From an uncultured Candidatus Saccharibacteria bacterium (GTDB taxonomy: Bacteria > Patescibacteriota > Saccharimonadia > Saccharimonadales > JALRHH01): DNA of 64,000 nucleotides. How positions within the stretch are numbered: position 1 is the first letter of the stretch; every line of letters starts with the position of its first letter. Shown here one piece after another: positions 10,830 through 63,612 of the stretch. The stretch lies in assembly GCA_964639295.1 (NCBI GenBank), contig CAZXDT010000001.1, positions 245,068 through 309,067 on the forward strand. Reading direction: 5' to 3'. Below the pieces are notes generated by a model, which saw nothing but the letters and a program-made list of their open reading frames with translations, was not told the DNA's origin and ran no database searches. Position numbers and translations under genes: made by a program.

Positions 10830-10833
10830 TGTG

Positions 10834-10862
10834 GGGCGGATATATTTTTATCCGCCCTTTTT
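10834..10862. promoter_or_regulatory. Strong GC hairpin 4 nt upstream of the start codon of the 2053-aa gene (5'-UTR structure, or a plus-sense terminator)
   Basis: 9-bp stem GGGCGGATA (10834-10842) / TATCCGCCC (10849-10857), 6-nt loop. The T-run 10858-10862 is present only in plus sense. The ATG is at 10827-10829, and no SD is visible between hairpin and ATG. Confidence 0.5.
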
Positions 10863-11270
10863 CGTTTTAACTTTTGCCAAATGTTTTTGTCCCTAGGTAC
10901 CACTTGTGAGGAGAATGGATCCTATGCCCTCTATTATCCCCTTATCAACAGATTAGGACAAGCGTAATGACACAAGTTTTTTATAGTTCCTTCAGTTTAT
11001 ATGATTTCAGAATTCGTCTTAAAATATCGTTGTTATAAGAACTACAATTTATTAAATAATCCCCGTGTTTTTAGTTTTTCTATCTGTTAGTTATCTGCAC
11101 AAAGTGAATAATAATCGTTGTTAATATAACAATTTACTACTTCTTCCGTATACATTTTTTCATAGTTTTCCACAGGCATTTTTGCCAATTTTGACCGAAT
11201 TTGCACAATTTTGACACATCAAAAAATACCATGAATGATCTTAACGTTGGGTACATAAAATGCGCAAAGT

Positions 11271-16193: not shown

Positions 16194-16219
16194 GGTGCCG
16201 TTTTTATCTCATAGGTTTC

Positions 16220-19200
16220 CTAGAACTTACTGTTATATCTTAGTGTAATATTTCCAAGGAATGTTATTGGGTAGTTTGTGCTGTTAGCCGTACCACTCAT
16301 CCTAATCTTAATGGTCATCCAGTCATTGGTCGTGTAGTTACCACTTAATGACCCTGCTGCTACGTCAGCCCAAGTTGTACCAGGGGTACCCGTGGTATAT
16401 GTTGATGGATAGTTCGTTTCAAAGGTATTATTACTGTCAACTATAGCGATACCGTATGCGGCACTAGAAGCACCGGGTGTAGTACGCATCATCTGAATCT
16501 TAATTGGATCCCCAACCGTATCCCATCCATCCCAGTCCTTAGGAATTGGTACCTGTACAACCACGTCATAACACTGGGCTGATGTCTGTGTCGTAGTCCA
16601 CTGGTAGTTATTCATACGAGGGTTGCTTGCAGTATCGAAGCCACTCGTCATTGTACCGTTGTTTGCACTACTACAACTTGAGTCCGCGGCTGCGTCGAGC
16701 ACCGCCCCAGCAAACTCTGGCTGGAGCACGATTGTCTTAACATTTCTTGCTGTACCGTTAAGCGTAAACGCCCCTGTTGTTGTACCACCAGAACCACTCA
16801 AAGTTATGCCGTTACTCGTAGAACCGATCTGTATGGCACCGCTACCAGCTACGCTGAACAGCGTTGCGGCTGAGTTATTTTGAATCAAGAAGTTGCCAGT
16901 TGCACCAGTGCCACAAGCAGTACAGTTGAGCTTCATGATGATACTTGGATCTGTTGTAGTATCTGCAGCGGTGAAGCTAATGTTCTTGTTGTCAGCAAGT
17001 GTGATGTCAGCAGGTGAAGAAGCGTTGTATACACTCTGGAGGCTACTTACCGTACATGTACCCCATGAAGGGGCTGCAACACCATTACCGGAGATCAGAC
17101 ACTGGCCAGTTGAACCTACTGCAGTTACACCGAATGCACTTGTACCATTGCCAAACAGCACCCCATATTGAGTAAAGCTAGCGGCGCCAGAGCCACCATA
17201 CTGAACACCAACAGTAGATCCATTCCATGTACCGGCTGTCACGACACCACTTGTGTTCACGGCAAAGGCGTTTGCAGTACCTACATTCAATGAGCCCTCG
17301 AAGTCTGCATTTACGGTCGCAGTAAGGCTACCAGTAATGTTTGTAGTCTTCATGAGTTCTATCGTTCCTGAAGGCTGGAGTTGGTAGTTGCCAGATGCAT
17401 TCTCTTGCCCAGCTAATACTCTTGTTGCATCAGTGCCACTAATGGCTCCACCCGCCATAATATTGCTACCCAAGATGGTGCCTGTACCGTTATCTGAAAT
17501 ACCTGCACCGTTAAGACCGTTATTTGCAAAGTAGTTATTGTCTGAGGTACTGTTCGTAACAACAAGTCCATTACAAGTAGTAGTACAGCTTGTGTCTGTT
17601 ATGTTGTTTCCGGTAATAGTGTTACCGTCTGAGGTTGTGAGAGAAACCGCATTGTTGGCTGTAGCACCACCCGTATCACTCACTGCATTTCCACTAATAA
17701 TGTTGTTGTTACTAGACAGTAGTGAGAAACCATTCGCGGCATTTGTATTTACCGTGTTACCGGTAACAGTGTTATTAGAACTTGAACTTAGGAAGACGCC
17801 GTTTAGAGTATTGCCTTGTAGAGTGTTACCTGTAATGGTGTTGAACGAGCTACTGGACATGTAAATACCCATGTTGTCACTACCCTGTGCGGTGTTACCG
17901 GTAATATTGTTATGAGAACTTGAGATAAGCATAATACCTGCGGTAGCATTACCTTCAGTAGTGTTATCGCTAATAGTGTTGTTGTTTGAGTTGCGTATAC
18001 ATATACCTGCACCCAATTGACAAGTCGCAACTGCACCGCTGTACCAGTTATTGCTCTGAACATTACGTATCTTAGCACCTGGACGAGCACTTGTACCCGA
18101 GCCGCCGCCCATGTTATTGAAGTCAATTCCACTCATACCAACGGCTGTGGCTTGTTGGGACTTATTGCCATCAAGACGTAGATCTTGAACCGTTACATTT
18201 GTACCAGTGGTAGTATCAGTGTTAACTATGGCACTAAAGTTAGTGTTTAGAGCGTTAGGGATGGTTATAAGCGTGCCTGCTCCTACACCGGATAGTGTAG
18301 TGTTGTTCGGTATAGAGATGCTTCCATCAATAGTGTACGTACCGGCAAGAAGAACAACTTTCTTACCAGACGCAGTGGTTAACGCACTGTTAATTTGAAC
18401 CTGATCACCATCGAGTGCAGCTCCTGTGTTGCCATCGCCTACATAGTCAGCAGCGTCTTTATCATTCTGGCTACTGTCACTTGCTGCAACGTAGATTGCA
18501 TCGCCACGATCAGCCTGCCACTTACCATTAGAGTAGGTCATGATCCGCTTAGTATCAGTATCGTAGTAAGTCATACCCTCAGTTGGTGAACCAGGACGTG
18601 AAGCAGTGTTGCCACCGACAATACGGAGGTATTGACCAGCGGCAACTGTGACATTCTTATTTAGGTTGATACCTGTAGCGTTGGTTGTGCCGATATTAAG
18701 CAGAGCAGCTGTTGGGGTGTCGATAAGTGGGGTGGTAATGCTCGTATCAGCACGACCTGTGCCACTAATCCAGAAGTTACTTGCAGACTGTTGTCCGGCA
18801 TTCTGGTTCTGTATGTATGAACTGGAACCGGACCCAGCAGCATAACCAGTACAGACAGAGCCTGTAGTACAGATAGTACCGTCTTCGTTAGGTAGTGTCC
18901 AGGTACGTGCGGCAGTTAGGTCGGCATTGGTGATTGTGCCGTCAAAGCGGGCAGCACCAACTGCAGCAACTACAACTTTAATGCGATCCTGTGTTGCGGT
19001 TGCACTATCGACAGTGACCCCTCGTATGGTTGCTACGCCCGTGAAGCTACTGGTGCTTGTAACAGAGAACGTTCCAGTAACATTTGTGTTCTTCGTGAGT
19101 TCAATTGTGCCAGCAGGTTGGATGTAGTAGTTGCCGTTGGCTTCATCCTTTACCTGGCCGTTGAAGATGGTAGTTGTACCACCATCGTTTACAGAACCAC

Positions 19201-22200
19201 CACCAAGCGTGTTGTTAGCTATATAGTTGGACGTACCTGCGTTGATGTTAATTGCGTAATTAGTTGTCGTGGCTGAGCTATCACTAATTGTGTTACCCGT
19301 GATGATGTTGTCTTGGTTTGTTGATGTCAGGAAGAAAGCATCATTGTTAGCGGCTCCACCTGTATCGTATATGGAGTTACCCGTGAAGGTGTTGTGACGT
19401 GCGCCAGAGATACGGATACCGTTGGTCCCGGCCGTAACACTGTTCCCACTGAAGGTGTTGTACGCTGCGGTATTGCCAGCGACGAACATACCGTATGTTG
19501 TATTGTTGACAATGGTGTTACCAGTAACAATGCTGTTTGCAGGAGCACTGCCTGCGCCAGTAGTAAAGTAGATACCTGCTGTAGTGTTGCCGTTAATGTA
19601 GTTATTGGAAATTGTCAGATATGTTGATCCGTTTTCCGCATCAATACCCTTAGCGTTGGCAAGCAATGTGTTATTACTAATAATATCGTTGGTTGAGTTG
19701 GTATCAATGAATATACCCGCGTCATTAGTGTTACCCATTATGGTGTTGTTGCTCACCGTAGTATTAATCGTATTATTGAGGTAAATACCACTGAATCGGA
19801 AGTTCTTTATTGTCAGGTTGGTCAACCTTGCGCCTTGAACTGTAGTACCGCTACCCATGCCGTTTAAGTAGATACCTTGTTCTGTTCCAGAGGCGTTGTT
19901 CGCCTTGTTACCATCTAGTGTTAAGTTAGAGACCGTGACACTAGTACCAGAGGTCGTAGTCGTGTTGGTAATTGCATTTATGGCCCCAGCACCAATGGTG
20001 TTTTTAAGCTTAATAATTGTTCCGGCACCGGCACCTGTTAGGGTGACGTTATCTGGGATGCTTATTGCACCATCGATGATGTACGTACCTTCCATGAGGT
20101 AGACGGTACCGCCGGAGGCAGGCATAGAGCTTAGGGCGCTGTTTATGACTGTCTGTGCACTCGTAGTGCTGGCGTTAACGTAGTCCGCCCCATCATAACC
20201 AACACTTGCGATAGCGGTGCTGACACCACCAGAAGCACTAGTACCAACAATCTTAGTTGCAGTGGAACGATCCGCCTGCCACTTACCGTTTGCGTATACC
20301 AAGAGTTGTTTAGTAGTGGTGTCGTAGTACAGCATACCCTCTACTGGTGAACCTGGGCGTGAAGCAGTGTTGCCACCTGTAATAGTCAGTGATTGGCTAG
20401 CGGCTACAACGACGTTCTTGTTGAGGTTGATCGCTGTAGCGTTAGTTGTACCGATATTGAGAGCTACGGCTGTTGGAGTATCAAATAATGGTGCTGTGAA
20501 GCTTGTGTCTGATCGGCCTGTGCCACTAATCCAGAAGCTACTTGAAGTTTGCTGTGAAGCACTCTGGTTCTGAATGTAGTTACCAGAACCACTACCAGCT
20601 GCAAAGACATTACAGGTAATCGTATCGCCGAGTTGAGTAACTGCCTGGCCAGCAGGACATGCGGCTGGGTAATTATTGAGTGCCGTCCAATCTACTACAC
20701 CAGCGCTACTAACCGAAATGTTGTCCTGTAGGTAGGCGTCAGCTATGGTGTTTCCCTGCCATGTACCAGTTGTAACTGTACCAACACCAGTGATACCAGT
20801 GTAAGAGCCAGATATTCGACCAGTGGCGACCGTGCCACTTGCTAAGTTAGAAGCATCGAGGTTGGTAAGGCTTGCACCGTCACCAGCAAAACTAACAGCG
20901 CTAACTGCACCCGTAAATGTTGCCACTCCTGTGCTTGAGATAGTTAGGCGTGTAACACCGTTCGTTTCAAGACCAAGATCAAAGGCATTATTTGTACCGA
21001 TAGTCATTGTCGCAGCCACTGTGTTACCGCCTTGTAGCACATCACCTGTACCACCTACGCCAGCACAGTTACCACTCGTTCGACAAACAGTCGCATCAAC
21101 AGCAACGTCGTTTGCATTGACCGTAATACCACTACCTGCACCAATATCCAATGTTGTCGAGCTACCGAGTGACACGCTGCCACCGTTCGTTAAACCACCG
21201 CCGGCAGTAACCGTAACGGAACTGTTTTGAAGATCAACATTCGCAACACTACCATCAGCAATTTCTGTTGAGCCAACACCGCCTGCCTTGATGGTTACAG
21301 CGCCACTTGTCACAGCAAAATTACTGCTGCTGAAGCTCGCTATACCCTTGGCGGCCGTCGTAGCATCGTCTATCGTCACTACTGAACCAACGCCAGAAGA
21401 GTTGGCGATAGTCAAAGCACCTGATAGTGAGTCCAGACTTGTCACGCCAGAACCAGCAGCAGCACAACCACCAAAGTATAGATTGCCACTGGCATCTGTC
21501 TTAAGACAGTCGGTATTGCTTCCAGGGGCACTTGGGAGTTTCAAGCTGAAGTTACTTGTTGGATCAGTTGTAGGGGCCTGCAATGAAACAGTATGTGTAC
21601 CAGCAGCATTACGGAAAGCGATTGATCCATCAAGACTACTGCTTGTACCTAGTGATAAACTGTTCGCACCCTGAATCGATACGGTACCGGTAAAGTTAGC
21701 CGTAGAAGAAATTGTCTGTCCATTAATAAGACCGGATGTAATTGTGCCTGTCGTAGTAAGGTTGCCGCTACCCAGAGCGATAGCTGCGTTGTTTGTCTGA
21801 ATACCACCATTAGCGCTCAATAGGCCAGCAACATCTACAGCATCACTGAGTATAGTCTTACCCGTGCCATTTGCATCTAGAGTAAGATCTTGGTTGGATC
21901 CGGTTGTGATATCGGTTGTTACACCAGAGAATGTAAGTCCGGCTGTTAGGCCAAGACCGCTAAATTGTGGTGTTGAGCTCGTATTAATATCTTGAGGTGT
22001 AGACAGTGTGATAACACCTGTGTTGTTGTTCACAATGATCTGATTAGCAGTTCCTTGTACGGTTACAGCACCGGTAAATGTGTTCAGACTAGAGACGCTA
22101 CCGCCGCCACCAGGACAAACTGACCATATTGGGGCTGCTCCAACGCCGTTAGAGACCAAACACTGTCCTGCTGCTACTGCAGCTAGCTTGTTAAGTGTCG

Positions 22201-25200
22201 TAGCGCCTGATGCATACAGTAAATCACCTGTTGTGTAGCTGCTAAGACCTGTACCACCCTTATCGGCATCAAGTGTACCTGTAAGGTATGAAGTATCATT
22301 ACGGCTTACTGTACCAGTTGCAAGCGTGCCTGAACCATTAGTTTTGACCAATCCTACAGAGTTGAGGCCAGAAAGTGTCAGACCGGCAAAGGTTGGAGCT
22401 GAAGTACTGTCGATATTCTGGATAGTGTTAATAACGCCAAGGCTTGCACTAAAGTTAGTTGCGTTGAACTGAGCAATACCCTTGGCAGCAGTTGAAGCAT
22501 CGTTAAGTGTTACGACACCACCTGATCCAGAAGCATTTGCAATGCTCACCACACCTGTTTGGCTGTTGAGGCTGGTAACACCACCACCCGCACCACCAGT
22601 ACAAGCAGTAAATGTTAGTGTACCAGCCCCGTTTGACTGCAAACAGTCACCGTTAGACCCGTAGGCACTTGGTAACTTGAATGTTAGATCTGCAGCTGGG
22701 TCAGCAGCAGGAGCTTGCAAGGCGACAAAGTGGGTACCTGCTGCATTGTAGAACTTGATCGAACCGTCGAAGCTGCTACTTGTACCAAGTGACAAGCTAT
22801 TTGCACCTTGAATAATTACATTACCGGTTGCCGTAACGGTGCTACCAGAATCGCTCAGACTACTGTCACCAATAGTACCCGCAGCCGTAAACTTAGCAAT
22901 CTTATTGATCGTACCGCCGCCGCCGACAGCTCCACCGCCACCACCGCCGACACAGTTGTTTGTGCTGAGACAGATAGTTGCGGTTGCACCAGCTGGATCA
23001 GGCAAGATGTAAGTTGTATCTTGGCCAAGTGAACCAATAACCTGAACCGTACCCTTGTGTGAAGCAACTCCAGTGCCGCCATCGTAGAGTACGAGTGAAC
23101 CTTGTTGGCTGTTAGCACCAATAGTTGCGGTTGCACCTTGAACCTCGAGAGTGCCACTAAACACCGGACTGTTGGTAATTGTGATGTTGCCACAGGTACC
23201 ACCAGCGCCAAGTGTTACCGCATTGCCGCCTCCAGATAGATTTCCAGTACCGCTAGCACAGTTAAGGACAGTGTTACCTTGTACTGCTGTGTTACCAGTT
23301 GAGCCATAGACGACATTAAGTGTGCTTGTGCCACCAGCACCAAGTGTGATTGTACTGCCACCACTTAAACCAGTACCCGCGGAAATAGTTACCGCTGTAT
23401 TACCCTGTACTGCAGTGTTCGCTGAACTTCCGTATACGACAGCCAAGTTGGTACTTGCGCCTAATGAAACTGCACCACCACCACTCAAACCGTTACCTGC
23501 GGTAACCGTTAGAGAGCTGTTCTGCAGTTTGATGTTTGTTACATTGCCATCAGCTATTTTGCTAGTAGTAACAGCATTGTTAGCGATAGTTGCTGTACCG
23601 GTCTCTGAGAGAGTGATATCGCTACTAACAGCGTGATTTTCCCATCGGCTATTTGTAGCGTTATATATAAGTACATGACCGCCAGCCGCACCACTGATGT
23701 TCAAATTAGTACCTTGAAGCTTAGCAATTGTTGGGTTAGGGTATGAGCCTGTTAGGTCTCCACCAGCTGTTCCAGCAGCGGCACAGTTACCAGTGCTCAC
23801 ACAAACCGTACCGGTAAGAGCTGGGAAGGTAATCGTATTTGTCCCTGAAGGAGCAGCAAATCCAAGTGTTGTAATGTTTGCACCACTACCGGCCGCAAGA
23901 CTAGTGTTAGCGTTACCTTGTAGTGTAAGAATTTGACCCGTTGAACCAACGGTCAAAGTACTTGAAGGAGCGAGGCTTGTAATATCAGTGTTAGCACCAC
24001 TTGCAGCTGCACCCAAGTTTGTTCGAGCAGTTCCGGCATTGTTTGCCCCGGTACCACCATTAGCGACAGGAACCTGTCCCGTAAGGCTTATATTACCCGC
24101 TGCACTGAGTGCGATGTTACCACTGGCTGATACCGCCAAGGTACCACTCACGTCTGGAACTGTTATAGTTCGTGCTCCCGTAGCTACACCAGTGAACCTA
24201 AAGTTGTTAGTTCCAGTACCACCAAGGTACAGGTCACGGAATGGAGCCGCATTTGAGCCAAGGTCAATTGTTGTTGATCCTGTTAGTAAGCTCGTGTTAA
24301 GCGCCACACCTGATAGATTAGACAGCGCCTGGTTAGCACAAGTAGCACAACTTCCAGCGCCTGGAGCACTTATAGTAATACTACCACCACCGTTGGTGAT
24401 GGAGACTCCTGAACCAGCAGTCAAGGTGGCTACGGTATAACCGGTGCCATTACCAATGAGTAATTGTCCGTTTGATGGAGTTGTACTAACCCCAGTACCA
24501 CCGAGGGTGACACCGAGCAAACCACTGACTTCACTACCGAGGTTAATATTACCAGTACCGAGAAGCCCAGCACTTGCACGAACTGGTCCACTACCGAGAC
24601 CACTAAGTGTTAACCCCGCAAAGGTTGGTGCCGCACCCACATGAATGTTCTGTGGAGTACTAAGCGTCAGCGTACCTGATCCAGTGGCAACACTGATCTG
24701 ATTCGCCGTTCCAACAACACTTAGTGCACCTGATTCACCATTTACTGATGTTACAGCACCACCGCCAGGGCATGCCTGCCAGCTTGGTGCGCCCGCTGTA
24801 CTTATAAGACAGAGTCCTGCGCCACCAGCAGCCACGCTAGTAAGTGCACTCGTACCATTACCAACTAATACACCATTTGCTGTTAATGTGGCAGCTCCTG
24901 TGCCTCCCTTGGTAACAGGGAGCGTGTTTATAACATCCGAGCCACTTAAGTCAATTGCGCTGACAACACTCATAGTGCCACCAGTTGACTTAACGAAGCC
25001 GTTGCCTAATGAAGATACCGTCAGTGATCCACCGACGGTTGTGTCACCATTATTCGCAACGGCAAGCTTATCAACCCCACCAGATTGTAAGCGTATCAGA
25101 TGCCCGCCTCCAGTATCGTTGATAAATATTGATGCCTCAGGGTCTGTATCAGCTTGAGCTGTTGGTTGTGATAGTAATACTGCTGTACCGCCACCAACCG

Positions 25201-26218
25201 CACAGCTTGCACCACTCGTACATATTGTCTGTGACAAAGCACCAGAGTTAGGGAACTGGAATACACGCCCACCAGCCGTAAAGGTAATCATATCTGAGCC
25301 AGCGTTGATATCAATACTGTTACCAGCGCTGGTTTGGGTGAGCTTATTGGCTTTGATTTCGCCACTTGGGCTAACCGTTAAACTGCCGAATTGTACGTTT
25401 GCGTTAGCATCAAGATCTTGAGGTGTACTAAGTGTTAGTACGCCATCGCTAGTGGAAACACTTATCTGGTTAAGTGAGCCTTGGATTGCAACATCCCCTG
25501 CTTGATTATTGAGTGCCGTAACTCCTGCGGCAGGAATGGCGACCTGACTGAGTGCTGTTACTTGGCTTTGCAACTCAGTGAATTGATCATTACCAACATA
25601 ACTACAGTTATTACTGTCCAAACAGATGGTACCTGATGCGTTAGGCAGGCTAAGAGTCTGGTTGGCTGTAGCATCCTGTGTCTTGATAACGGTTACAAAG
25701 CCACCGCTTGAGACCTTAATGCTACCCCTAGTTATGAAGTCACCGTTGACAAGCAGTGACTGATTAGCTCCCTGTAACTCTGTGGGAACGTTTGTATTGT
25801 CAGCATCCTTGAGGAGTACATCTTGTTGCGCCCCAGCGTTTGACTGCTTGTCTTTGTTCGGGCTATTCCTGACGAGGAACAGCATACTCGTACCTGTTAA
25901 AAGTACTACCAACAGTGTGATTGTGGTAGATATAACCATCGCTTTTCGCTTAGAGAACATAAACACGGGGTTTTTCATTCGTGGCGGCTGGACCATTTGG
26001 GTTTGTGGAGCTGACTCGTGAACATCGAGTGTTTCTACGGAGTACGTCTGGGGGCTGGAAGCGTAGAAGCTCACTGTTTGATTATCGTCAACACCGTCAA
26101 GACTAACCCCAGATTGGAGGTTAGATACAGGTACAGTAACCGGTGGTTGGCGATCGTCCATTTTTTTGTGTAATTTGTTTATTTTGCACGCTTTTGTCGC
26201 GTGCTTTGATTTATACAA
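16220..26218 (-). CDS. Giant (about 3313-3332 aa) N-terminally anchored tail-fibre-like protein with two tandem neck plus beta-helix (tailspike-like) modules and a conserved C-terminal domain
   Basis: ORF track. The 26218 start is TTG, only 4 nt after a TATAAT, so ATG at 26161 (MDDRQPP..) is more likely. TM is AMVISTTITLLVVLLTGTSMLFLV. Phage-tail-fibre-like motifs include GGTGANNAGTARTNLG (~24031-24070) and three copies of ANQIxV...TLSTPQ[DN]. Necks sit at ~20270-20385 and ~18505-18620, each followed by a ~300-aa N/G/T/I-rich beta-helix (~19150-20100 and ~17450-18370). The C-terminal ~190 aa are shared with the 2053-aa protein. Confidence 0.9.
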   Translation of the reverse strand: MYKSKHATKACKINKLHKKMDDRQPPVTVPVSNLQSGVSLDGVDDNQTVSFYASSPQTYSVETLDVHESAPQTQMVQPPRMKNPVFMFSKRKAMVISTTITLLVVLLTGTSMLFLVRNSPNKDKQSNAGAQQDVLLKDADNTNVPTELQGANQSLLVNGDFITRGSIKVSSGGFVTVIKTQDATANQTLSLPNASGTICLDSNNCSYVGNDQFTELQSQVTALSQVAIPAAGVTALNNQAGDVAIQGSLNQISVSTSDGVLTLSTPQDLDANANVQFGSLTVSPSGEIKANKLTQTSAGNSIDINAGSDMITFTAGGRVFQFPNSGALSQTICTSGASCAVGGGTAVLLSQPTAQADTDPEASIFINDTGGGHLIRLQSGGVDKLAVANNGDTTVGGSLTVSSLGNGFVKSTGGTMSVVSAIDLSGSDVINTLPVTKGGTGAATLTANGVLVGNGTSALTSVAAGGAGLCLISTAGAPSWQACPGGGAVTSVNGESGALSVVGTANQISVATGSGTLTLSTPQNIHVGAAPTFAGLTLSGLGSGPVRASAGLLGTGNINLGSEVSGLLGVTLGGTGVSTTPSNGQLLIGNGTGYTVATLTAGSGVSITNGGGSITISAPGAGSCATCANQALSNLSGVALNTSLLTGSTTIDLGSNAAPFRDLYLGGTGTNNFRFTGVATGARTITVPDVSGTLAVSASGNIALSAAGNISLTGQVPVANGGTGANNAGTARTNLGAAASGANTDITSLAPSSTLTVGSTGQILTLQGNANTSLAAGSGANITTLGFAAPSGTNTITFPALTGTVCVSTGNCAAAGTAGGDLTGSYPNPTIAKLQGTNLNISGAAGGHVLIYNATNSRWENHAVSSDITLSETGTATIANNAVTTSKIADGNVTNIKLQNSSLTVTAGNGLSGGGAVSLGASTNLAVVYGSSANTAVQGNTAVTISAGTGLSGGSTITLGAGGTSTLNVVYGSTGNTAVQGNTVLNCASGTGNLSGGGNAVTLGAGGTCGNITITNSPVFSGTLEVQGATATIGANSQQGSLVLYDGGTGVASHKGTVQVIGSLGQDTTYILPDPAGATATICLSTNNCVGGGGGGAVGGGGTINKIAKFTAAGTIGDSSLSDSGSTVTATGNVIIQGANSLSLGTSSSFDGSIKFYNAAGTHFVALQAPAADPAADLTFKLPSAYGSNGDCLQSNGAGTLTFTACTGGAGGGVTSLNSQTGVVSIANASGSGGVVTLNDASTAAKGIAQFNATNFSASLGVINTIQNIDSTSAPTFAGLTLSGLNSVGLVKTNGSGTLATGTVSRNDTSYLTGTLDADKGGTGLSSYTTGDLLYASGATTLNKLAAVAAGQCLVSNGVGAAPIWSVCPGGGGSVSSLNTFTGAVTVQGTANQIIVNNNTGVITLSTPQDINTSSTPQFSGLGLTAGLTFSGVTTDITTGSNQDLTLDANGTGKTILSDAVDVAGLLSANGGIQTNNAAIALGSGNLTTTGTITSGLINGQTISSTANFTGTVSIQGANSLSLGTSSSLDGSIAFRNAAGTHTVSLQAPTTDPTSNFSLKLPSAPGSNTDCLKTDASGNLYFGGCAAAGSGVTSLDSLSGALTIANSSGVGSVVTIDDATTAAKGIASFSSSNFAVTSGAVTIKAGGVGSTEIADGSVANVDLQNSSVTVTAGGGLTNGGSVSLGSSTTLDIGAGSGITVNANDVAVDATVCRTSGNCAGVGGTGDVLQGGNTVAATMTIGTNNAFDLGLETNGVTRLTISSTGVATFTGAVSAVSFAGDGASLTNLDASNLASGTVATGRISGSYTGITGVGTVTTGTWQGNTIADAYLQDNISVSSAGVVDWTALNNYPAACPAGQAVTQLGDTITCNVFAAGSGSGNYIQNQSASQQTSSSFWISGTGRSDTSFTAPLFDTPTAVALNIGTTNATAINLNKNVVVAASQSLTITGGNTASRPGSPVEGMLYYDTTTKQLLVYANGKWQADRSTATKIVGTSASGGVSTAIASVGYDGADYVNASTTSAQTVINSALSSMPASGGTVYLMEGTYIIDGAISIPDNVTLTGAGAGTIIKLKNTIGAGAINAITNTTTTSGTSVTVSNLTLDGNKANNASGTEQGIYLNGMGSGTTVQGARLTNLTIKNFRFSGIYLNNTINTTVSNNTIMGNTNDAGIFIDTNSTNDIISNNTLLANAKGIDAENGSTYLTISNNYINGNTTAGIYFTTGAGSAPANSIVTGNTIVNNTTYGMFVAGNTAAYNTFSGNSVTAGTNGIRISGARHNTFTGNSIYDTGGAANNDAFFLTSTNQDNIITGNTISDSSATTTNYAININAGTSNYIANNTLGGGSVNDGGTTTIFNGQVKDEANGNYYIQPAGTIELTKNTNVTGTFSVTSTSSFTGVATIRGVTVDSATATQDRIKVVVAAVGAARFDGTITNADLTAARTWTLPNEDGTICTTGSVCTGYAAGSGSSSYIQNQNAGQQSASNFWISGTGRADTSITTPLIDTPTAALLNIGTTNATGINLNKNVTVAAGQYLRIVGGNTASRPGSPTEGMTYYDTDTKRIMTYSNGKWQADRGDAIYVAASDSSQNDKDAADYVGDGNTGAALDGDQVQINSALTTASGKKVVLLAGTYTIDGSISIPNNTTLSGVGAGTLITIPNALNTNFSAIVNTDTTTGTNVTVQDLRLDGNKSQQATAVGMSGIDFNNMGGGSGTSARPGAKIRNVQSNNWYSGAVATCQLGAGICIRNSNNNTISDNTTEGNATAGIMLISSSHNNITGNTAQGSDNMGIYMSSSSFNTITGNTLQGNTLNGVFLSSSSNNTVTGNTVNTNAANGFSLLSSNNNIISGNAVSDTGGATANNAVSLTTSDGNTITGNNITDTSCTTTCNGLVVTNSTSDNNYFANNGLNGAGISDNGTGTILGSNIMAGGAISGTDATRVLAGQENASGNYQLQPSGTIELMKTTNITGSLTATVNADFEGSLNVGTANAFAVNTSGVVTAGTWNGSTVGVQYGGSGAASFTQYGVLFGNGTSAFGVTAVGSTGQCLISGNGVAAPSWGTCTVSSLQSVYNASSPADITLADNKNISFTAADTTTDPSIIMKLNCTACGTGATGNFLIQNNSAATLFSVAGSGAIQIGSTSNGITLSGSGGTTTGAFTLNGTARNVKTIVLQPEFAGAVLDAAADSSCSSANNGTMTSGFDTASNPRMNNYQWTTTQTSAQCYDVVVQVPIPKDWDGWDTVGDPIKIQMMRTTPGASSAAYGIAIVDSNNTFETNYPSTYTTGTPGTTWADVAAGSLSGNYTTNDWMTIKIRMSGTANSTNYPITFLGNITLRYNSKF

Positions 26219-28317: not shown

Positions 28318-31176
28318 TTACTGGCGTTCTAAACCTACGACAAGACTCTTACCTTCAACCTGAACTTCAGTTGAGTAGGACTTTTCGCCCTCGTTATGAA
28401 GAGACACTGCCAGGGTTTCAGTCTTAATATCCACTGTGAACTCCGTAATAGCCTCTGTAAGCTCTGCGTCGTCTGTAGTAAGCACAAGTGTTATGCGGTC
28501 ATCGACATTCAGTCCTGCAGCCTTACGAGCGGTCTGGACGTTACGTACCACCTCGCGCATAAGTCCCTCTCTCTTAAGTTCGGGGGTCAAATCCGTATCA
28601 ATTGCCAGTTCTGGGCCTACTTTTACTTCTTTGACGTTCAGTTCATCCTTGAGAATATCTTCAAAGTTCACGAACTCGCCAATCCGAGGCACCGTAACAC
28701 TTGCCAGAGGTTGACGTACTTTGAGACGCGATGATGCACGCAATGATAACCCCTGGTTTACATACTCACGAACTTCTTCCATATCTGTTACGACAAGTTC
28801 GTTGACGTGGCCAGCCGGTAGCCAGTCCTGTAAATGTACGCTTTCGCCCCCTGTAAGTTTCTGGAACAACTCCTCTGCAAGGAATGGCGTAAACGGTGCT
28901 AATACATAGCTAAGGCGCACTAAGACGTAGTGGAGTGTCTTATAGGCCATCGCCTTGTCGCCATCATCCTCACTCTTCCAAAAACGACGACGACTCCGAC
29001 GTACATACCAGTTAGATGCATCTTCGATGAAAGGCAAAATAGGTTTAACGGCATTTGGTATGTCATAGCGCTCCATATGTGTTTCTACCTCTGATACGAG
29101 CTGATGCAGGCGGCTCACAATCCAGTGATCAAGCGGGTTCGTACACTCTGGAGAAGGGTCCTCTAATGTACCACTCCACTCCCAGTTATCTACCTCTGCA
29201 TACATCGTGAAGAAGTCGTACATATTCCACACCATGCTCAGCTTACGGGCCACATCTCCAACTTCTTTATCTTGAAGAGCAAAATCTTCGCCGTTTAGGA
29301 GCGGACTCTGTAAAAGCAAGAAACGAAGGCTGTCCGCACTGTACTGATCCATTAATTCATTCGGATCAGTATAGTTGCCGTAGGACTTACTCATTTTACG
29401 ACCGTCATTACCAGCGACGTTGCCGGTAACAATAACGTTCTTAAAGGCATTCTTACCAAACAATCCAACATTTACGGCGTGGACATAATAGAACCATGCA
29501 CGAACCTGACCGATGTATTCTACGATGAAATCACCAGGGAAATTGGCTTCAAACTTCTCTACATTCTCAAAGGGGTAATGGAACTGGGCGAATGGCATAC
29601 TACCGGCCTCAAACCAGCTATCCATCACCTTATCTATGCGCTTGTAAGTAACTCCGTCAATTTCAAAGGTAATTTCATCTACCCAAGGACGATGGTAATC
29701 ATCAAGTCGCTTACCAGAGAGCTGCTCAAGTTCATCATAACTCCCAATCACCTTCCGGTGGAGCTTGCCATGCTCATCAGTACCTTCCCAGATTGGCATC
29801 GGGGAGGCCCAGAAACGATCTCTAGACAGGTTCCAATCCGGAGCAGTCTGAACCGTCTTCTCGAAACGACCGTGCTTTACGTGCTCTGGGAACCAATTGA
29901 TGTTCTCGGTGTTTTCCTCGAGCATCAATTCCTTTTGGTCCTGGATATTCATGAACCAACTGGGGTGAGCTCGGTACATGAGTTTGGTACCACAACGGTG
30001 ACAGTGTGGATAGCTGTGGCGGACATAGTCAATCTTCCAGACAATACCCTTTTCATAGAGGTCCTTGGCTATTTGTTTGTTGATATCCCAAACATAGCTC
30101 CCCTTCCAATCTAACTCCGTGAAATGACCGGTTTCATCTATGCTGTGCACCACAGGGATCTTGTGTTGCTGGGCGAGAACAAAGTCTTCTTCACCATAAG
30201 CCGGTGCCAAGTGGACGATACCGGTACCGTCTTCAGCACTTACATAGTCGGCAGCCCAGACTTTGTGGGCATTTTCACCCCTGTCTGTGAAAAGTGGCTC
30301 ATATGACTTACCTACTAGATCTTTGCCCTTTAACTCTTGTAGGATGGTGTGCTCAAGTGGCTGGTGTCTTTCATCCGTTAGAACTTTTGCAACTAATTCC
30401 TTAGCAAGCACAAACTTCTCTTCGCCAACCTGTACTTCAACATAGTGAAGATCTTTATTAACAGCGAGAGCTGTATTTGCTGGCAATGTCCAAGGGGTAG
30501 TAGTCCAAGCTAATAGCGTGAGCCCACCTTCAAGCTTAAACTTCACATATACAGATGGATCAGTTACATCCTGGTATGCGCCAGAGTCCATGGTAACCTC
30601 AGCCTTTGAGAGTGGTGTGGCGTCCTGAGTACAGTACATTAGTACCTTTTCACCTTCGTAAATCTTACCCTTGTCATAGAGCATCTTGAAGGCCCACCAG
30701 ACAGATTCCATGTATTTATTATCCATTGTCTTGTAAGCACCCTTGAAATCAACCCAACGGCCTACACGATCGATTGTGTCCTCCCAGAGTGAACTGGTTT
30801 GAACCATATTCTCACGTGCAGCAACGATGTAATTCTCTAATCCATATTCCAAAATCTCGTCTTTGCCCTTGATACCAAGCTTCTTCTCGGTATACACCTC
30901 AGCCGGCAAGCCATGACAGTCCCAGCCCCAGACGCGCTCAACTCGCTTACCTTTCATAGTCCAAAACCGTGGCACAGCATCTTTAACGATGGAGCTCAGG
31001 AGTGTTCCGTGGTGAGGAACACCGGTAATGAACGGAGGACCATCATAGAAGATATAACTATTGCTAGCTGAACGTTGCTCAACTGACTTCTCAAAAGTCT
31101 TGTTATGTTTCCACTGCTGCACTAGGTCCTTTTCATACTCGAGCGCACGGCGGCGACTGTTTGCCTTAAACTTCAT
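28318..31176 (-). CDS. ileS: Isoleucyl-tRNA synthetase (type 2-like)
   Basis: 952 aa. Class I motifs PPFITGVPHHGTLL (HIGH region) and GRKMSKSYGNY (KMSKS). It has the GWDCHGLPAE and editing-domain pattern of IleRS rather than ValRS or LeuRS. SD GGGGAGA precedes the ATG. Confidence 0.9.
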   Translation of the reverse strand: MKFKANSRRRALEYEKDLVQQWKHNKTFEKSVEQRSASNSYIFYDGPPFITGVPHHGTLLSSIVKDAVPRFWTMKGKRVERVWGWDCHGLPAEVYTEKKLGIKGKDEILEYGLENYIVAARENMVQTSSLWEDTIDRVGRWVDFKGAYKTMDNKYMESVWWAFKMLYDKGKIYEGEKVLMYCTQDATPLSKAEVTMDSGAYQDVTDPSVYVKFKLEGGLTLLAWTTTPWTLPANTALAVNKDLHYVEVQVGEEKFVLAKELVAKVLTDERHQPLEHTILQELKGKDLVGKSYEPLFTDRGENAHKVWAADYVSAEDGTGIVHLAPAYGEEDFVLAQQHKIPVVHSIDETGHFTELDWKGSYVWDINKQIAKDLYEKGIVWKIDYVRHSYPHCHRCGTKLMYRAHPSWFMNIQDQKELMLEENTENINWFPEHVKHGRFEKTVQTAPDWNLSRDRFWASPMPIWEGTDEHGKLHRKVIGSYDELEQLSGKRLDDYHRPWVDEITFEIDGVTYKRIDKVMDSWFEAGSMPFAQFHYPFENVEKFEANFPGDFIVEYIGQVRAWFYYVHAVNVGLFGKNAFKNVIVTGNVAGNDGRKMSKSYGNYTDPNELMDQYSADSLRFLLLQSPLLNGEDFALQDKEVGDVARKLSMVWNMYDFFTMYAEVDNWEWSGTLEDPSPECTNPLDHWIVSRLHQLVSEVETHMERYDIPNAVKPILPFIEDASNWYVRRSRRRFWKSEDDGDKAMAYKTLHYVLVRLSYVLAPFTPFLAEELFQKLTGGESVHLQDWLPAGHVNELVVTDMEEVREYVNQGLSLRASSRLKVRQPLASVTVPRIGEFVNFEDILKDELNVKEVKVGPELAIDTDLTPELKREGLMREVVRNVQTARKAAGLNVDDRITLVLTTDDAELTEAITEFTVDIKTETLAVSLHNEGEKSYSTEVQVEGKSLVVGLERQ

Positions 31177-31369
31177 CTATGTCTCCCCTATTTGAGTATT
31201 CTAGTCCAACAAGTACGGAGGCTATTCGTGATACGCTCTCGTCACTTAAGCCATCCCAATCTTCAAAATCAACGTCTAATCCCTGTTTTCTGAGAGAAAT
31301 AGCTAATTGCACTCTATCTAGTACGAGGAGTTCTGTGTCACCATTTGGTTGTAGTATTTCGTGTGTCAT
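31166..31369 (-). CDS. Small acidic hypothetical protein (67 aa) between the T-box leader and ileS
   Basis: ORF track. SD AAGGA sits 6 nt before the ATG. The 3' end overlaps the ileS start by 11 nt, which suggests translational coupling. No family recognised. Confidence 0.6.
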   Translation of the reverse strand: MTHEILQPNGDTELLVLDRVQLAISLRKQGLDVDFEDWDGLSDESVSRIASVLVGLEYSNRGDIDEV

Positions 31370-31384
31370 ATTGATCCTTAAATT

Positions 31385-31577
31385 ACAAAAAATCCCTGTT
31401 TAGTCACTGGAATCCGCATCTCGCGGACGGTACCATCCAGTTTCTAAAAAGAGATTCTTTTTAGCGCTTATTTACCTGATCTGTCGTGTCAGTTCCGTCG
31501 GATTCTACTTGGCTTACGCCGTTCTTCCCGCTCCTCACAGTTGATAGCTGTTTCACGCTGTTAGCGATAGGATTATG
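31385..31577 (-). promoter_or_regulatory. Candidate T-box riboswitch leader (tRNA-Ile responsive) upstream of the small ORF and ileS
   Basis: The minus-strand RNA has a canonical antiterminator at 31440-31407. Its parts are A1 CUGGA, a 7-nt bulge UGGUACC, A2 GUCCGC, loop GAGAU, GCGGAU and UCCAG. UGGU is complementary to ACCA with the A73 discriminator. A Stem-III-like hairpin CUAAAAAGA-AUC-UCUUUUUAG precedes it. An alternative long helix ends in the U-run at 31392-31387. AUC triplets occur at 31480-31478 (followed by A) and at 31503-31501. Confidence 0.65.
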
Positions 31578-31583
31578 TCCTTC

Positions 31584-31612
31584 ATTGTAGACCATTTTGC
31601 AACAGTCTGCAA
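31584..31612 (-). promoter_or_regulatory. Putative sigma70-type promoter driving the T-box leader
   Basis: The minus strand reads TTGCAG (31612-31607), 17 nt, TACAAT (31589-31584). Confidence 0.5.
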
Positions 31613-32554: not shown

Positions 32555-35317
32555 CTATGAGCAACCGGTGGTTGAGCCACAACTGGTACAGACGTAGCAT
32601 GAACCTGCTTTTTGGGTCTGGTTGCCACAGTTGTAACAGAGTGGTGCATCCGTATCGGTCTTGATAGACTTTGGTGCTTCTACCTTAGCGGCTTTTGGAG
32701 CCTCTACAGGCGCAGGAGCAACTGGAGCGATATCTGCTTTAACTTCTGCCACTGGAGCATCTAGCAAGCTCGTCTGCTCTTCTGGCATGTCATCAATTGA
32801 TGCAAGGCCAAGTTCGAGGCGCTCGTCAAATGACAAGTAACTGAGTGCTAGACGCTTAGCGATGTAATCCATCAGAGATGAAGCAGTGCGGATCTCTGGG
32901 TCATCAGTGATGCCAGATGGTGCAAATGACATACTCGTGAATGACTTAACGTAGTCTTTCAGTGGTACACCGTATTGTAGGCCGTGGCTAACTGATATAG
33001 CCAGTGAATCCATGAAGCCCGCCAGGGTTGAACCCTGCTTAGCGAGTCGCATAAACACTTCACCTGGGCGACCATCATCATACTCACCAACAGTTAGGTA
33101 ACCATGGCTACCAGCAACAGTGAATGAGAACGTCTTGGAGTTACGAACCTTAGGTAGTGGTGTGCGGATGGTACCCTTTACAATGATCTTCTCGTTCATT
33201 GATTCAAGAGTTACATCTTCTTTCTTGTCTGCGCCGTCCTTCTTAGCCATAGAGAGTGGCTGGCCAACCTTACAGTTGTCACGGTAGATAGCGACAGCCT
33301 TGAGGCCCATCTTCCATGAGTCAATGTGTAGTTGCTCTACATCTTCAACTGTTGCTTCTTCTGGCATGTTAACTGTCTTACTAATAGCACCAGATATAAA
33401 TGGTTGTACTGCAGCCATCATCTTAACGTGGCCAAGATAGTGAATTGAGTTATCACCCATGGAACAAGCAAAGACATTTTCGTGCTCTTTCTTGAGGTGA
33501 GGAGCACCAAGTATTGTCTTTTCTACATCAATGTAGTTCACAATATCGTCAACTTGTTCCTTGTTGTAGCCAAGTGCCTTGAGGGCACGTGGCACTGTCT
33601 GGTTCACGATACTCATAGTACCGCCACCGACCAACTTCTTGACCTTAACAAGGCCGAGATCTGGCTCAATACCAGTGGTGTCACAGTCCATCATTAGGCC
33701 AATGGTTCCCGTTGGAGCCAAGACTGATGCCTGTGAGTTACGAACACCGTATTGGGTACCAAGTTCAACAGCTTCGTCCCATGCAGTTGCAGCAGCACTG
33801 AGGAGTTCCTCGGATACAAGGCTGGCATCGATGTCACGAACTGCTTCACGGTGTTGCTTGAGTACTCCGAGCATGCCATCACGGTCTTTGTGGAAGCCAC
33901 TGAATGGACCGACACGGTTAGCAATCTTAGCACTTGTAGCGTAACTGTGACCCGTCATAAGCGCTGTAATTGCAGCTGCTTGTGCACGACCTTCGTCTGA
34001 GTCGTATGGAAGACCCTGAGCCATAAGAAGTGCACCGAGGTTAGCGTAGCCGATACCGAGTTCACGGTAAGCCTTAGCGTTCTTGGTAATCTTCTCTGTT
34101 GGGTACTCACTGTAACCAACCAAAATTTCTTGTGCGGTAAAGATCAGCTCAACTGTGTGCTTGAAGGCTTCAATATCAAAGCTAAAGTCGTCTTTCAAGT
34201 ACTTGAGCAAGTTGATACTTGCCAAGTTACAAGCTGAGTCATCAAGGTGCATGTACTCACTACAAGGGTTAGAGGCGTTAATACGACCTGCGTTTGGAGT
34301 GGTGTGCCACTTGTTAATGGTCGTATCGAACTGCATGCCTGGATCAGCACACGCCCATGCGGCTTGGTTGATCTGACGGAAGAGCTCACGAGCCCTGACG
34401 GTCTTAATAGCCTTGCCAGTAGTAACAGCACGGAGATCCCAGTTGTCATCGTTAAGGACGGCTTGCATGAAGTCATCACTAACGCGAACAGAGTTGTTAG
34501 CGTTCTGATACTGTACAGAGAAGATATCCTTACCGTCGACACCCATTTCGAAGCCTGCATCTTGTAAGACACGGGCTTTTTCTTCTTCACGAGCCTTAGC
34601 CCAAATGAATTCTTCTACATCTGGGTGGTCAACGTTTAGGATGACCATCTTAGCTGCACGACGTGTCTTACCACCACTCTTAATAGCGCCTGCAGATGCA
34701 TCCGCACCACGCATAAAGCTCAGTGGACCAGAGGCAGTACCAGCACTCTTGCCAAGCTTCTCCATTGAAGAACGGATAACACTCAGGTTAATTCCAGAAC
34801 CAGAACCACCCTTAAAGACCATTCCTTCTTCGGTGTACCAGTTAAGAATAGCTGGCATAGTGTCCTCAATACCGAGGATGAAACAAGCACTTGCTTGCTG
34901 TGCACGTTCAGGTGCACCGATGTTAAACCAAACTGGTGAGTTAAAAGCTGCGCGCTGTGAGGCAAGCACGTACTTAAGTTCCTCACGGAAGTCTTCACCT
35001 TCTGCTTCGGTTTCAAAGTAACCTTCTTGCATACCCTGACGAGTCACGGTATCTACGACACGATCAATGAGCTTCTTAAGCCCGTCTTCACGGTCTGCAT
35101 CACCAGGAGTACCCGTAAAGTACTTCTGCGCTACGATGTTAATTGCGTTAATAGAAAAGCCCTCTGGAAACTCGACACCGAGTTGCTCAAAGACAGGCTT
35201 GCCAGTTATAGGGTTCATGATTACTGAATCACGCTTAGCCCACTTTAATTGGTCATACCCTTTGCTTTTTGCGGGCGTAAACAGACGCCTGCGGCCCAGG
35301 ATTGTATTTTGTCCCAT
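32555..35317 (-). CDS. nrdJ: Adenosylcobalamin-dependent ribonucleotide reductase (class II)
   Basis: 920 aa. Conserved class II blocks are ACFILGIEDTM, GGSGSGINLSVIR, NPCSEYMHLDDSACNLASINL and VAIYRDNCK. The C-terminal Cys cluster is CYNCGNQTQKAGSCYVCTSCGSTTGCS. SD GAGGG precedes the ATG. Confidence 0.92.
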   Translation of the reverse strand: MGQNTILGRRRLFTPAKSKGYDQLKWAKRDSVIMNPITGKPVFEQLGVEFPEGFSINAINIVAQKYFTGTPGDADREDGLKKLIDRVVDTVTRQGMQEGYFETEAEGEDFREELKYVLASQRAAFNSPVWFNIGAPERAQQASACFILGIEDTMPAILNWYTEEGMVFKGGSGSGINLSVIRSSMEKLGKSAGTASGPLSFMRGADASAGAIKSGGKTRRAAKMVILNVDHPDVEEFIWAKAREEEKARVLQDAGFEMGVDGKDIFSVQYQNANNSVRVSDDFMQAVLNDDNWDLRAVTTGKAIKTVRARELFRQINQAAWACADPGMQFDTTINKWHTTPNAGRINASNPCSEYMHLDDSACNLASINLLKYLKDDFSFDIEAFKHTVELIFTAQEILVGYSEYPTEKITKNAKAYRELGIGYANLGALLMAQGLPYDSDEGRAQAAAITALMTGHSYATSAKIANRVGPFSGFHKDRDGMLGVLKQHREAVRDIDASLVSEELLSAAATAWDEAVELGTQYGVRNSQASVLAPTGTIGLMMDCDTTGIEPDLGLVKVKKLVGGGTMSIVNQTVPRALKALGYNKEQVDDIVNYIDVEKTILGAPHLKKEHENVFACSMGDNSIHYLGHVKMMAAVQPFISGAISKTVNMPEEATVEDVEQLHIDSWKMGLKAVAIYRDNCKVGQPLSMAKKDGADKKEDVTLESMNEKIIVKGTIRTPLPKVRNSKTFSFTVAGSHGYLTVGEYDDGRPGEVFMRLAKQGSTLAGFMDSLAISVSHGLQYGVPLKDYVKSFTSMSFAPSGITDDPEIRTASSLMDYIAKRLALSYLSFDERLELGLASIDDMPEEQTSLLDAPVAEVKADIAPVAPAPVEAPKAAKVEAPKSIKTDTDAPLCYNCGNQTQKAGSCYVCTSCGSTTGCS

Positions 35318-63491: not shown

Positions 63492-63498
63492 TATATAA

Positions 63499-63612
63499 TT
63501 CGGCACCGTGCTATTTTCCCAGGGGTGAACCCCAAGTATTGTAACCGCGGCGAGGCTTAACTTCTGTGTTCGGTATGGGAACAGGTGTCGCCCTCGCGCC
63601 ATGGGCACCGAA
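63499..63612 (-). rRNA. rrf: 5S ribosomal RNA
   Basis: The reverse complement reads UUCGGUGCCCAUGGCGCGAGGGCGACACCUGUUCCCAUACCGAACACAGAAGUUAAGCCUCGCCGCGGUUACAAUACUUGGGGUUCACCCCUGGGAAAAUAGCACGGUGCCGAA. It has the conserved CCGAACACAGAAGUUAAGC block, and the termini pair as helix I. Ends are good to +/- 3 nt. Confidence 0.93.

Follow-up and report, generated by a model that had tools for sequence, protein, structure and literature searches.

An isoleucine T-box leader with a predicted nested terminator upstream of ileS in Saccharibacteria

The stretch of DNA analysed here, 64,000 nucleotides (nt) from an uncultured Candidatus Saccharibacteria genome (contig CAZXDT010000001.1, hereafter the window), carries on its minus strand, at 31387-31572, a T-box leader specific for isoleucine (Ile), located 5' of an open reading frame (ORF) of 67 amino acids (aa) and of ileS, the gene encoding isoleucine-tRNA ligase. 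The assignment of this leader to the Ile T-boxes is almost certain. Transcription attenuation is its most likely means of controlling the small-ORF-ileS operon, through protection of the helix called Stem III; the probability of this whole reading is estimated at about 0.72.

Identification of the leader as an Ile T-box

The Rfam T-box model RF00230 aligns with the leader over the whole length of the model (31576-31405, model positions 1-219), with 24.3 bits and E = 0.0015 in a 401-nt search using permissive filters. No T-box is reported in the whole window at the gathering threshold, whose score of 93 reflects curation geared to long-Stem-I T-boxes rather than a biological property. The core of the T-box is matched well, and the distal part of Stem I counts 25 nt here versus 71 in the model. 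Taken alone, this weak full-length alignment is suggestive of a T-box, and it is the comparison with orthologues that decides the assignment. The orthologous leaders reach at most 39 bits with RF00230, and five of the seven searched have no match at E ≤ 10. Because such scores (24-39 bits) stay far under 93, the class is invisible to routine Rfam-based annotation.

Orthologues were collected by an IleS protein scan keeping one genome per species of GTDB, which gave 80 loci whose IleS are 70-86% identical. Their labels are nearly all Saccharibacteria, Saccharimonadales or Patescibacteria, apart from a few generic 'bacterium' titles and one Verrucomicrobiia. A lineage covariance model (R1) built from 41 leaders has a single match in the window (31387-31558, 153 bits) and one match in each of the 79 loci having upstream sequence; all lie on the ileS strand, 5' of ileS, and there is no other match in 720 kb. 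In the MAFFT alignment of the 41 leaders, the structure corresponding to the ON state shows 95.1% of paired cells and compensatory changes at 27 of its 35 pairs, a result equalled by none of 500 shuffles. When all 80 sequences are considered, 97.1% are paired and 26 of 31 pairs covary. Controls in which the register was slid give 32-46% of pairing, for this structure as well as for the OFF structure described below. The strand is indicated by abundant G.U pairs (e.g., 40 of 80 sequences at the closing pair of the A2 helix), which would become A-C mismatches on the opposite strand. A look-alike on the minus strand, the T-box-core-like ACUGAUGGAACCGUCAGU at about 12015-12031 (a second GAUGGNACC match, near 12023), lies inside a long ORF, is not matched by R1 and was rejected as a chance occurrence.

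The 5' half of the leader comprises the following elements:

31532-31572, minus strand: ultrashort Stem I (covariation, conservation, permutation test)
31572-31570 / 31534-31532, minus strand: basal helix of Stem I, UCC / GGA (fixed-register permutation)
31566-31556, minus strand: mini-hairpin CGCU-AAC-AGCG inserted in Stem I, at the place of the simple GYUY bulge of 21 leaders
31554-31553 / 31536-31535, minus strand: K-turn-like GA/GA of Stem I (orthologue conservation)
31547-31541, minus strand: 7-nt apical specifier loop CUAUCAA of Stem I, closed by the 4-bp stem ACAG/CUGU (covariation)
31545-31543, minus strand: specifier AUC, followed by the purine A at 31542 (loop conservation, anticodon complementarity)
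31499-31530, minus strand: Stem II, with its base CGGG/UCCG, an S-turn AAGAA (31526-31522) / AGUAGAA (31509-31503) and an apical hairpin
31476-31497, minus strand: Stem IIA/B pseudoknot, IIA being CG..CG and CUGA (31492-31489) pairing with UCAG (31479-31476)
31486-31482, minus strand: F-box-like CGACA, at the F-box position in the pseudoknot

All four pairs of the 4-bp stem of Stem I covary, with 99-100% of pairing. Its loop carries AUC at positions 3-5 in 75 of the 77 complete leaders, the remaining two being misalignments, and the base that follows AUC is A in all leaders but two. Among 74 leaders, the GA dinucleotide that flanks this stem 5' occurs in 52, and its 3' counterpart in 62. For the basal helix, a permutation test with free register and inserts of 2-30 nt was not significant (3.46 vs 3.32). 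With a fixed register, the 21 leaders having a simple GYUY bulge form 2.57 of 4 pairs vs 1.87 ± 0.19 after permutation (1/5000), and their helices are of various types (UCC/GGA, GAC/GUC, AAC/GUU, AGC/GCU, GGC/GCU).

Here and in all orthologues, Stem I stops at the 7-nt specifier loop and a distal elbow-binding platform is lacking. A first reading made from the sequence only had failed to trace any Stem I distal motifs; indeed, none exist in this leader. The 5' domain folded alone is thermodynamically unremarkable (z = +0.6) because it is built from non-canonical motifs, which explains why Stem I could not be traced by eye. The same sequence-only reading had proposed a specifier candidate at 31480-31478, which is incorrect, the true specifier being located at 31545-31543 in the apical loop of the short Stem I. 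The candidate sequence GAUCA (31481-31477) provides the 3' strand of the pseudoknot helix IIB, and its covariation partner is the IIA loop.

A Stem II S-turn and a Stem IIA/B pseudoknot with its F-box are present in all T-boxes except the glycine ones. In the leaders studied here, the five base pairs of Stem II all covary, UAGA is invariant and the GAAGAA run nearly so. The four pairs of the IIB helix all show compensatory changes (79% paired in the MAFFT alignment) and IIA displays such changes too. The F-box-like CGACA stands where the ileS T-box of Mycobacterium tuberculosis has CGUCA (PMC11297988).

The 3' half contains the modules that would discriminate between charged and uncharged tRNA:

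31465-31475, minus strand: linker with the conserved RAG (AAG at 31469-31467, columns invariant or nearly so), directly 5' of Stem III
31444-31464, minus strand: Stem III, CUAAAAA-GAAUCUC-UUUUUAG (covariation), the putative switching helix
31406-31443, minus strand: AA(A) linker and antiterminator, the latter at 31440-31407 (covariation)
31440-31407, minus strand, parts of the antiterminator in 5' to 3' order: A1 helix CUGGA/UCCAG, bulge UGGUACC (31435-31429), A2 helix GUCCGC/GCGGAU closed by a G.U pair, apical loop GAGAU

Stem III is paired at 98.4% and five of its eight pairs covary; it is also seen in the minimum free energy fold of the nascent RNA of the window. The A1 helix is paired at 100% (four of six pairs covarying) and the A2 helix at 94-95% (four of five pairs covarying). 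The purines surrounding Stem III, AAGCG-[Stem III]-AAA, with little or no variation in the AAG and GAA columns, match the discriminator signature RRRxG-Stem III-AA that has been described (PMC7583486). The whole 3' domain folds at -31.0 kcal/mol vs -16.1 ± 2.7 for dinucleotide shuffles (z = -5.5), none of 200 shuffles being as good.

In the bulge, UGG is invariant among the 79 leaders, 74 of which carry UGGU and five UGGA. The UGGAACC bulge of these five (L018, L022, L061, L075 and L076) predicts either a tRNA-Ile with U73 or a tolerated A-A mismatch, and the tail ACC of the bulge is replaced by AAC or AUC in eight further leaders. The pair closing A2 (31428/31412, alignment columns 361/423) also varies, the G.U found in half of the 80 sequences being replaced by A-U in 16 others, by G-C in 10 and by U-A in 10. 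Solved T-box structures have led to the view that the aminoacyl group is sensed sterically, primarily by a G.U wobble in this place at the base of A2.

The ligand was sought in the genomes themselves. No tRNA gene was found in the window nor in 60 of the ileS loci, and a tRNA-Ile was obtained from a relative (L084, 14618-14694), not from the source genome. This tRNA (GGGCUUG...CU-GAU-AA...CAAGCCC-A-CCA) has the anticodon GAU, A37, A73 and an encoded CCA. Both predicted contacts match it, GAU with the AUC specifier and A73-C-C-A with the UGGU of the bulge. Its gene belongs to a ribosomal RNA (rRNA) operon located at 10532-16471 of an 837-kb contig, in the order 16S, tRNA-Ile(GAU), tRNA-Ala(UGC), 23S and 5S. 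The edge of the window (63498-64000, minus strand) harbours a 5S rRNA gene and the 3' end of a 23S rRNA gene. A gene encoding a HIT-family hydrolase (62774-63289 in the window) adjoins the rRNA operon both in the window and in this relative, so that synteny is conserved.

The leader could also have nothing to do with tRNA sensing and be either a protein-binding operator, IleRS regulating its own synthesis through a tRNA-like mimic, or a leader-peptide attenuator relying on the small ORF. Autoregulation through a tRNA-like mimic is known for E. coli thrS. A short hairpin with a 7-nt loop does superficially resemble an anticodon arm, and an ORF does separate the leader from ileS in the window. 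However, this loop bears the codon AUC and not the anticodon GAU, and complements tRNA-Ile rather than mimicking it; moreover, a UGGN bulge complementary to NCCA would have no role in a mimic. As for the ORF, it contains only 4 Ile among 67 residues, lies 3' of the terminator and is missing from 49 of 79 genomes. Such explanations are thus highly improbable.

The sequence-only reading had proposed an Ile T-box leader of a small-ORF-ileS operon, and all the sequence features that it listed are present on the minus strand where it had placed them, including the antiterminator with its UGGU bulge and the preceding Stem-III-like hairpin, which prove to be conserved and covarying. It would have been abandoned if RF00230 had given no significant hit, if no Stem I or specifier could have been modelled and if the UGGUACC bulge had not been conserved in the orthologous leaders. 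None of these three outcomes was fully observed. The RF00230 alignment runs end to end and lies at the right place, even if its 24.3 bits remain below the gathering score; Stem I and a specifier made of AUC followed by a purine can both be modelled; and the bulge as well as both flanking helices are conserved and covary in the 79 orthologous leaders. With a matching tRNA-Ile in addition, the proposal is upheld.

The predicted nested terminator and the proposed switch

A second structure, incompatible with Stem III, involves the 3' end of the leader:

31387-31456, minus strand: nested intrinsic terminator (RNAalifold, covariation, U-run)
31456-31444 / 31403-31391, minus strand: terminator helix, AAUCUCUUUUUAG pairing with CUAAACAGGGAUU
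31392-31387, minus strand: U6 that follows the helix
31375-31379, minus strand: Shine-Dalgarno (SD) sequence AAGGA of the small ORF, outside any conserved helix

The 5' strand of this 13-bp helix corresponds to the loop and the 3' strand of Stem III, and its 3' strand to the 13 nt that follow A1. Unguided RNAalifold draws the 3' half as one long hairpin, leading from the basal helix to A1, the 7-nt bulge and A2. In the MAFFT alignment, this OFF structure is paired at 94.0%, with compensatory changes at 30 of 37 pairs and none of 500 shuffles equalling it; eight of the ten basal pairs of the terminator covary. A U-run of 4-7 directly follows the helix in every leader examined. The sequence-only reading had noticed a long helix ending in U6 that it thought to compete with the antiterminator; the helix and the U-run are real, whereas the helix encloses the antiterminator and competes with Stem III. 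A generic terminator scan is blind to such a nested helix, its loop limit being 8 nt vs an insert of 38 nt here. A textbook intrinsic terminator is found elsewhere in the window, at 10833-10868 on the plus strand (GGGGCGGATA-TATTTT-TATCCGCCCT then TTTTCGTTTT), and the organism therefore uses termination by hairpin and U-tract.

Folding of 78 leaders individually gives the same picture. When the 3' tail is blocked, which mimics the nascent RNA, Stem III and A1/A2 form in 75 of them. When the full-length RNA is folded, an enclosing helix is present in all 78, with 7-18 enclosing pairs (mean 16); a stricter classifier of nested terminators retained 45 of 78, and the count of enclosing pairs was used instead. 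The full-length state is favoured by 14.6 ± 3.6 kcal/mol on average. For the window, the values are -31.0 kcal/mol for the full-length RNA vs -21.0 (blocked tail) or -21.9 (truncated RNA). The OFF folds keep A1/A2 in 78 of 78 leaders and leave UGGN unpaired in 73 of 78.

In the alignment, each of the two alternative pairings of columns 131/132 shows covariation, AU/GC with columns 123-124 and UA/CG with columns 190-191. To judge from these sequence comparisons, such dual covariation is the signature of a strand that switches between two helices. Many leaders contain an AUC in the Stem III loop GAAUCUC (31451-31457 in the window). This loop owes its conservation to pairing with the GGGAUU of the terminator base rather than to decoding.

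These data bear on the possibility that the leader is a relic derived from a T-box, whose modules would be conserved while its hairpin and U-run would act as a constitutive partial terminator or attenuator, without any response to tRNA. In favour of a relic, A1/A2 survive the OFF fold, which means that the mutually exclusive logic of classical T-boxes is missing, and the elbow-binding platform is absent. Nevertheless, AUC-A, the S-turn, the F-box, RAG, AA and UGG are under strong purifying selection across 79 genomes whose IleS share 70-86% identity. Furthermore, the covariation with both partners of a strand common to Stem III and to the terminator base is hard to explain unless both states matter. 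A relic is therefore quite improbable.

Another explanation is a translational T-box comparable to the ultrashort ones of Actinobacteria, in which uncharged tRNA-Ile would free the SD sequence, the long helix and the U-run being incidental or stabilising the RNA. This type of decoding module has been described only for translational T-boxes (10.1101/2023.02.28.530422; PMC7583486). In addition, the SD sequence is partly paired in the full-length folds of many orthologues whose leader abuts ileS (mean P(unpaired) 0.57). On the other hand, its partners there are mostly the U-run or the U-rich spacer, through weak local A/G.U pairs; no conserved covarying strand takes part, nor do the A1/A2 3' strands that serve in actinobacterial sequestrators. 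The SD sequence of the window is free (P(unpaired) 0.80), and no conserved SD sequestrator was found in the leader folds. The covarying helix ends exactly at the U-run of 4-7 in every leader, as expected for an intrinsic terminator. Moreover, the distance and the sequence between the U-run and the start codon are variable, whole genes being inserted there in 30 of 79 genomes. Purely translational control is thus unlikely, while a minor translational contribution may exist according to the folds.

The leader therefore probably acts by transcription termination, as the modelled folds suggest. It is rather likely, although with less assurance, that the switch itself lies in the protection of Stem III. 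In the proposed mechanism, transcription would start just 3' of TACAAT, and the decoding module (the ultrashort Stem I with its AUC-A loop, the Stem II S-turn and the IIA/B pseudoknot) would capture tRNA-Ile through the pairing of AUC with GAU. The 3' half would first fold into the discriminator made of RAG, Stem III, AA, A1, UGGUACC and A2. If the tRNA-Ile is uncharged, its A73-C-C-A would pair with UGGU, and Stem III would be stacked on A1 and latched by the RAG and AA purines. Stem III locked in this way would resist the 3' strand of the terminator while the next 20 nt are synthesized, leading to read-through into the ORF and ileS. With a charged tRNA, or without any tRNA, the AU-rich Stem III would remain unlocked; the nascent CUAAACAGGGAUU would then displace its 5' strand and pair with its loop and its 3' strand. 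The resulting 13-bp helix, located directly under an intact A1-bulge-A2 and followed by U6, would cause termination.

The model appears plausible because an antiterminator lacking Stem III barely binds tRNA (PMC7583486) and because the stacking of Stem III differs with the charge of the tRNA. Thus, in the full-length ileS T-box of M. tuberculosis, Stem III stays in its coaxial stack as long as the tRNA is uncharged, whereas a mimic of charged tRNA frees it before the OFF helix forms (PMC12647780).

It should be emphasized that several points weigh against this reading. The binding of tRNA, termination and read-through are all predictions from sequence, and the protection of Stem III, on which the model depends, has not been demonstrated for any T-box. 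Since A1/A2 and mostly UGGN remain intact in the OFF folds, pairing of the acceptor end alone cannot, according to these models, prevent termination. The distal platform of Stem I, which this leader lacks, is held to be essential in transcriptional T-boxes for the fast capture of tRNA (PMC7583486). The RF00230 score is far below the curated threshold, and the tRNA used as ligand comes from a relative rather than from this genome. The bulge of the UGGA leaders would mismatch A73, and the G.U considered as a steric sensor closes A2 in only about half of the leaders. Finally, the weak pairing of the SD sequence with the U-rich tail in many orthologues, mentioned above, points in the same direction.

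Promoter, passenger genes and genomic context

The leader is preceded by a promoter and followed by two overlapping coding sequences:

31607-31612, minus strand: -35-like hexamer TTGCAG (sequence reading; 3/6 vs TTGACA)
31584-31589, minus strand: -10 hexamer TACAAT, 17 nt from the -35 (sequence reading)
31166-31369, minus strand: acidic passenger ORF of 67 aa (no Pfam or NCBIfam match)
28318-31176, minus strand: ileS, isoleucine-tRNA ligase of 952 aa (Pfam tRNA-synt_1, Anticodon_1 and DUF5915; NCBIfam TIGR00392, 808 bits for a cutoff of 621)

The promoter starts directly 3' of the stop codon of an upstream ORF of 87 aa. It had been qualified as good in the sequence-only reading. This was generous, given that three of the six positions of the -35 depart from the E. 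coli consensus and that a generic promoter scan missed the pair. The -10 nevertheless lies as far from the leader as in the orthologues, the distance between its end and the start of the model being 25 nt in the window, for a median of 24.5 nt in the orthologues. TTGC-type -35 elements are recurrent 5' of the orthologous leaders, and promoter-like -35/-10 pairs (at least 9/12 matches) are found for 38 of 76 leaders vs 10 of 228 coding controls.

The 67-aa ORF overlaps ileS by 11 nt (31166-31176), its stop codon falling 8-10 nt within ileS, which suggests translational coupling. Among 5.8 billion proteins, a single homologue was found, which is 63% identical and encoded in the same leader-ORF-ileS layout. 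Locus L038 has a related N-terminal domain (E = 5e-8) and locus L019 a decayed copy, and the ORF is missing from the closest relative, L001. In 49 of 79 genomes, ileS begins 13-86 nt after the U-run without any passenger, and the other 30 have one or two passengers, which are small acidic ORFs of 51-83 aa without family assignment, GNAT proteins or assorted enzymes. The SD-equipped ORF noticed in the window between the leader and ileS is thus real but not a fixed part of the locus; it is one occupant of a variable slot, not a component of the switch.

A GNAT passenger of about 182 aa (PF00583, E ~1e-12) is found in at least 11 loci (L023, L030, L050, L051, L054, L060, L061, L064, L068, L072 and L074) and is preceded by a small ORF of 79-81 aa in L050 and L074. 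Its identification as a known tRNA-acetylating toxin was rejected, the scores being those of generic GNAT/RimI-like proteins, below cutoff. A link between GNAT and IleRS exists elsewhere, NCBIfam NF040702 being an IleRS fused to a GNAT domain. Many unrelated passengers end in '...DEV*' (or YEV, NEV, HEV), the TAA stop codon coming from the -1 frame of the conserved ileS start ATGAAGTTTAA.

Further away in the window, a class II (B12-dependent) ribonucleotide reductase of 920 aa with a TSCPD domain is encoded two genes 5' of the leader (32555-35317, minus strand). Two giant ORFs, of 3332 and 3443 aa, occupy 16220-26218 and 51964-62295 on the minus strand. The counterpart of a giant ORF beside the HIT gene in a relative (L088, 3353 aa) shows matches to MerR/HTH and Peptidase_S74 domains.

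Comparison with known T-boxes

Surveys record T-boxes in Firmicutes, Actinobacteria, Chloroflexi, Deinococcus-Thermus and a few Proteobacteria (PMC2494555; PMC1262725), and the short-Stem-I model of TBDB was applied to Actinobacteria only (PMC7778990). Searches of full texts gave no paper that links T-boxes with Saccharibacteria, the Candidate Phyla Radiation (CPR), Patescibacteria or TM7; an earlier mention in a supplement, or actinobacterial ultrashort leaders with terminators, may exist. Whether Saccharibacteria have a distinct and unannotated T-box class, with a nested OFF terminator, an intact A1-UGGN-A2 and a Stem III that is swapped out, is a tentative proposal, for which the odds are slightly less than even. 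Such a class would need a dedicated covariance model for its annotation.

If this proposal is true, a genetic decision would be read entirely from the locking of Stem III onto the antiterminator by uncharged tRNA, co-transcriptionally and without contact with the tRNA elbow, which would contradict the rule that the distal platform of Stem I is indispensable for transcriptional T-boxes. In joining transcriptional control to a minimal decoding arm that makes no elbow contact, the class would unite two traits that have been held separate, and it would add a new terminator topology. Because the helices that bind the acceptor end persist in both states, the leader isolates the docking of Stem III as a single variable; this docking was proposed in a 2025 single-molecule study as the step telling charged from uncharged tRNA (PMC12647780). 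In the CPR, in which regulation has been described as virtually unknown (PMC11665869), the leader would further be the first regulator of riboswitch type to be characterised. It would be a universally conserved putative sensor of Ile-tRNA charging in episymbionts that depend on amino-acid import.

The closest known systems are the ultrashort ileS T-boxes of Actinobacteria (M. tuberculosis, M. smegmatis, N. farcinica), the likeness being drawn from their published description rather than from a direct alignment. They also control ileS; their Stem I is short, contains a K-turn and displays AUC in its terminal loop, and they have no double-T-loop platform. In this class, the S-turn and the pseudoknot compensate for the missing double T-loop (10.1101/2023.02.28.530422; PMC10651847; PMC11297988). 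The Saccharibacteria leader has in common with them the Stem II S-turn, the IIA/B pseudoknot with its F-box (CGACA here, CGUCA in M. tuberculosis), the RAG linker, Stem III and the UGGN bulge between A1 and A2. In contrast, the actinobacterial T-boxes are described as translational, the sequestrator of their OFF state being formed by the SD region and antisequestrator sequence paired with each other, whereas every leader described here has a helix and a U-run, with an SD sequence outside the conserved helices. The OFF helix spares A1/A2 and consumes Stem III, and the hosts belong to the Patescibacteria/CPR.

Compared with the canonical transcriptional T-boxes of Firmicutes (B. subtilis glyQS and tyrS; RF00230), the leader shares a predicted tRNA-directed read-through of a U-tract terminator, the RRRxG-Stem III-AA signature, the 7-nt UGGNACC bulge, a specifier followed by a purine, and a weak full-length alignment with RF00230. 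It differs from them by the lack of a long Stem I, of an internal specifier loop, of the AG bulge and of the distal loop (the elbow-binding IDTM). According to reviews, transcriptional T-boxes cannot do without this distal platform, and only translational ones can dispense with it (PMC7583486). Furthermore, the terminator of canonical transcriptional T-boxes takes its 5' strand from the 3' strands of A1/A2 (PMC7583486), whereas the 5' strand is here the loop and the 3' strand of Stem III, and A1/A2 are enclosed. The leader thus fails one defining feature of each of these two subclasses and displays every general T-box feature that can be read from sequence. It is best described as a putative, apparently undescribed variant that would combine an ultrashort-type sensor with a nested, Stem III-swapping terminator.

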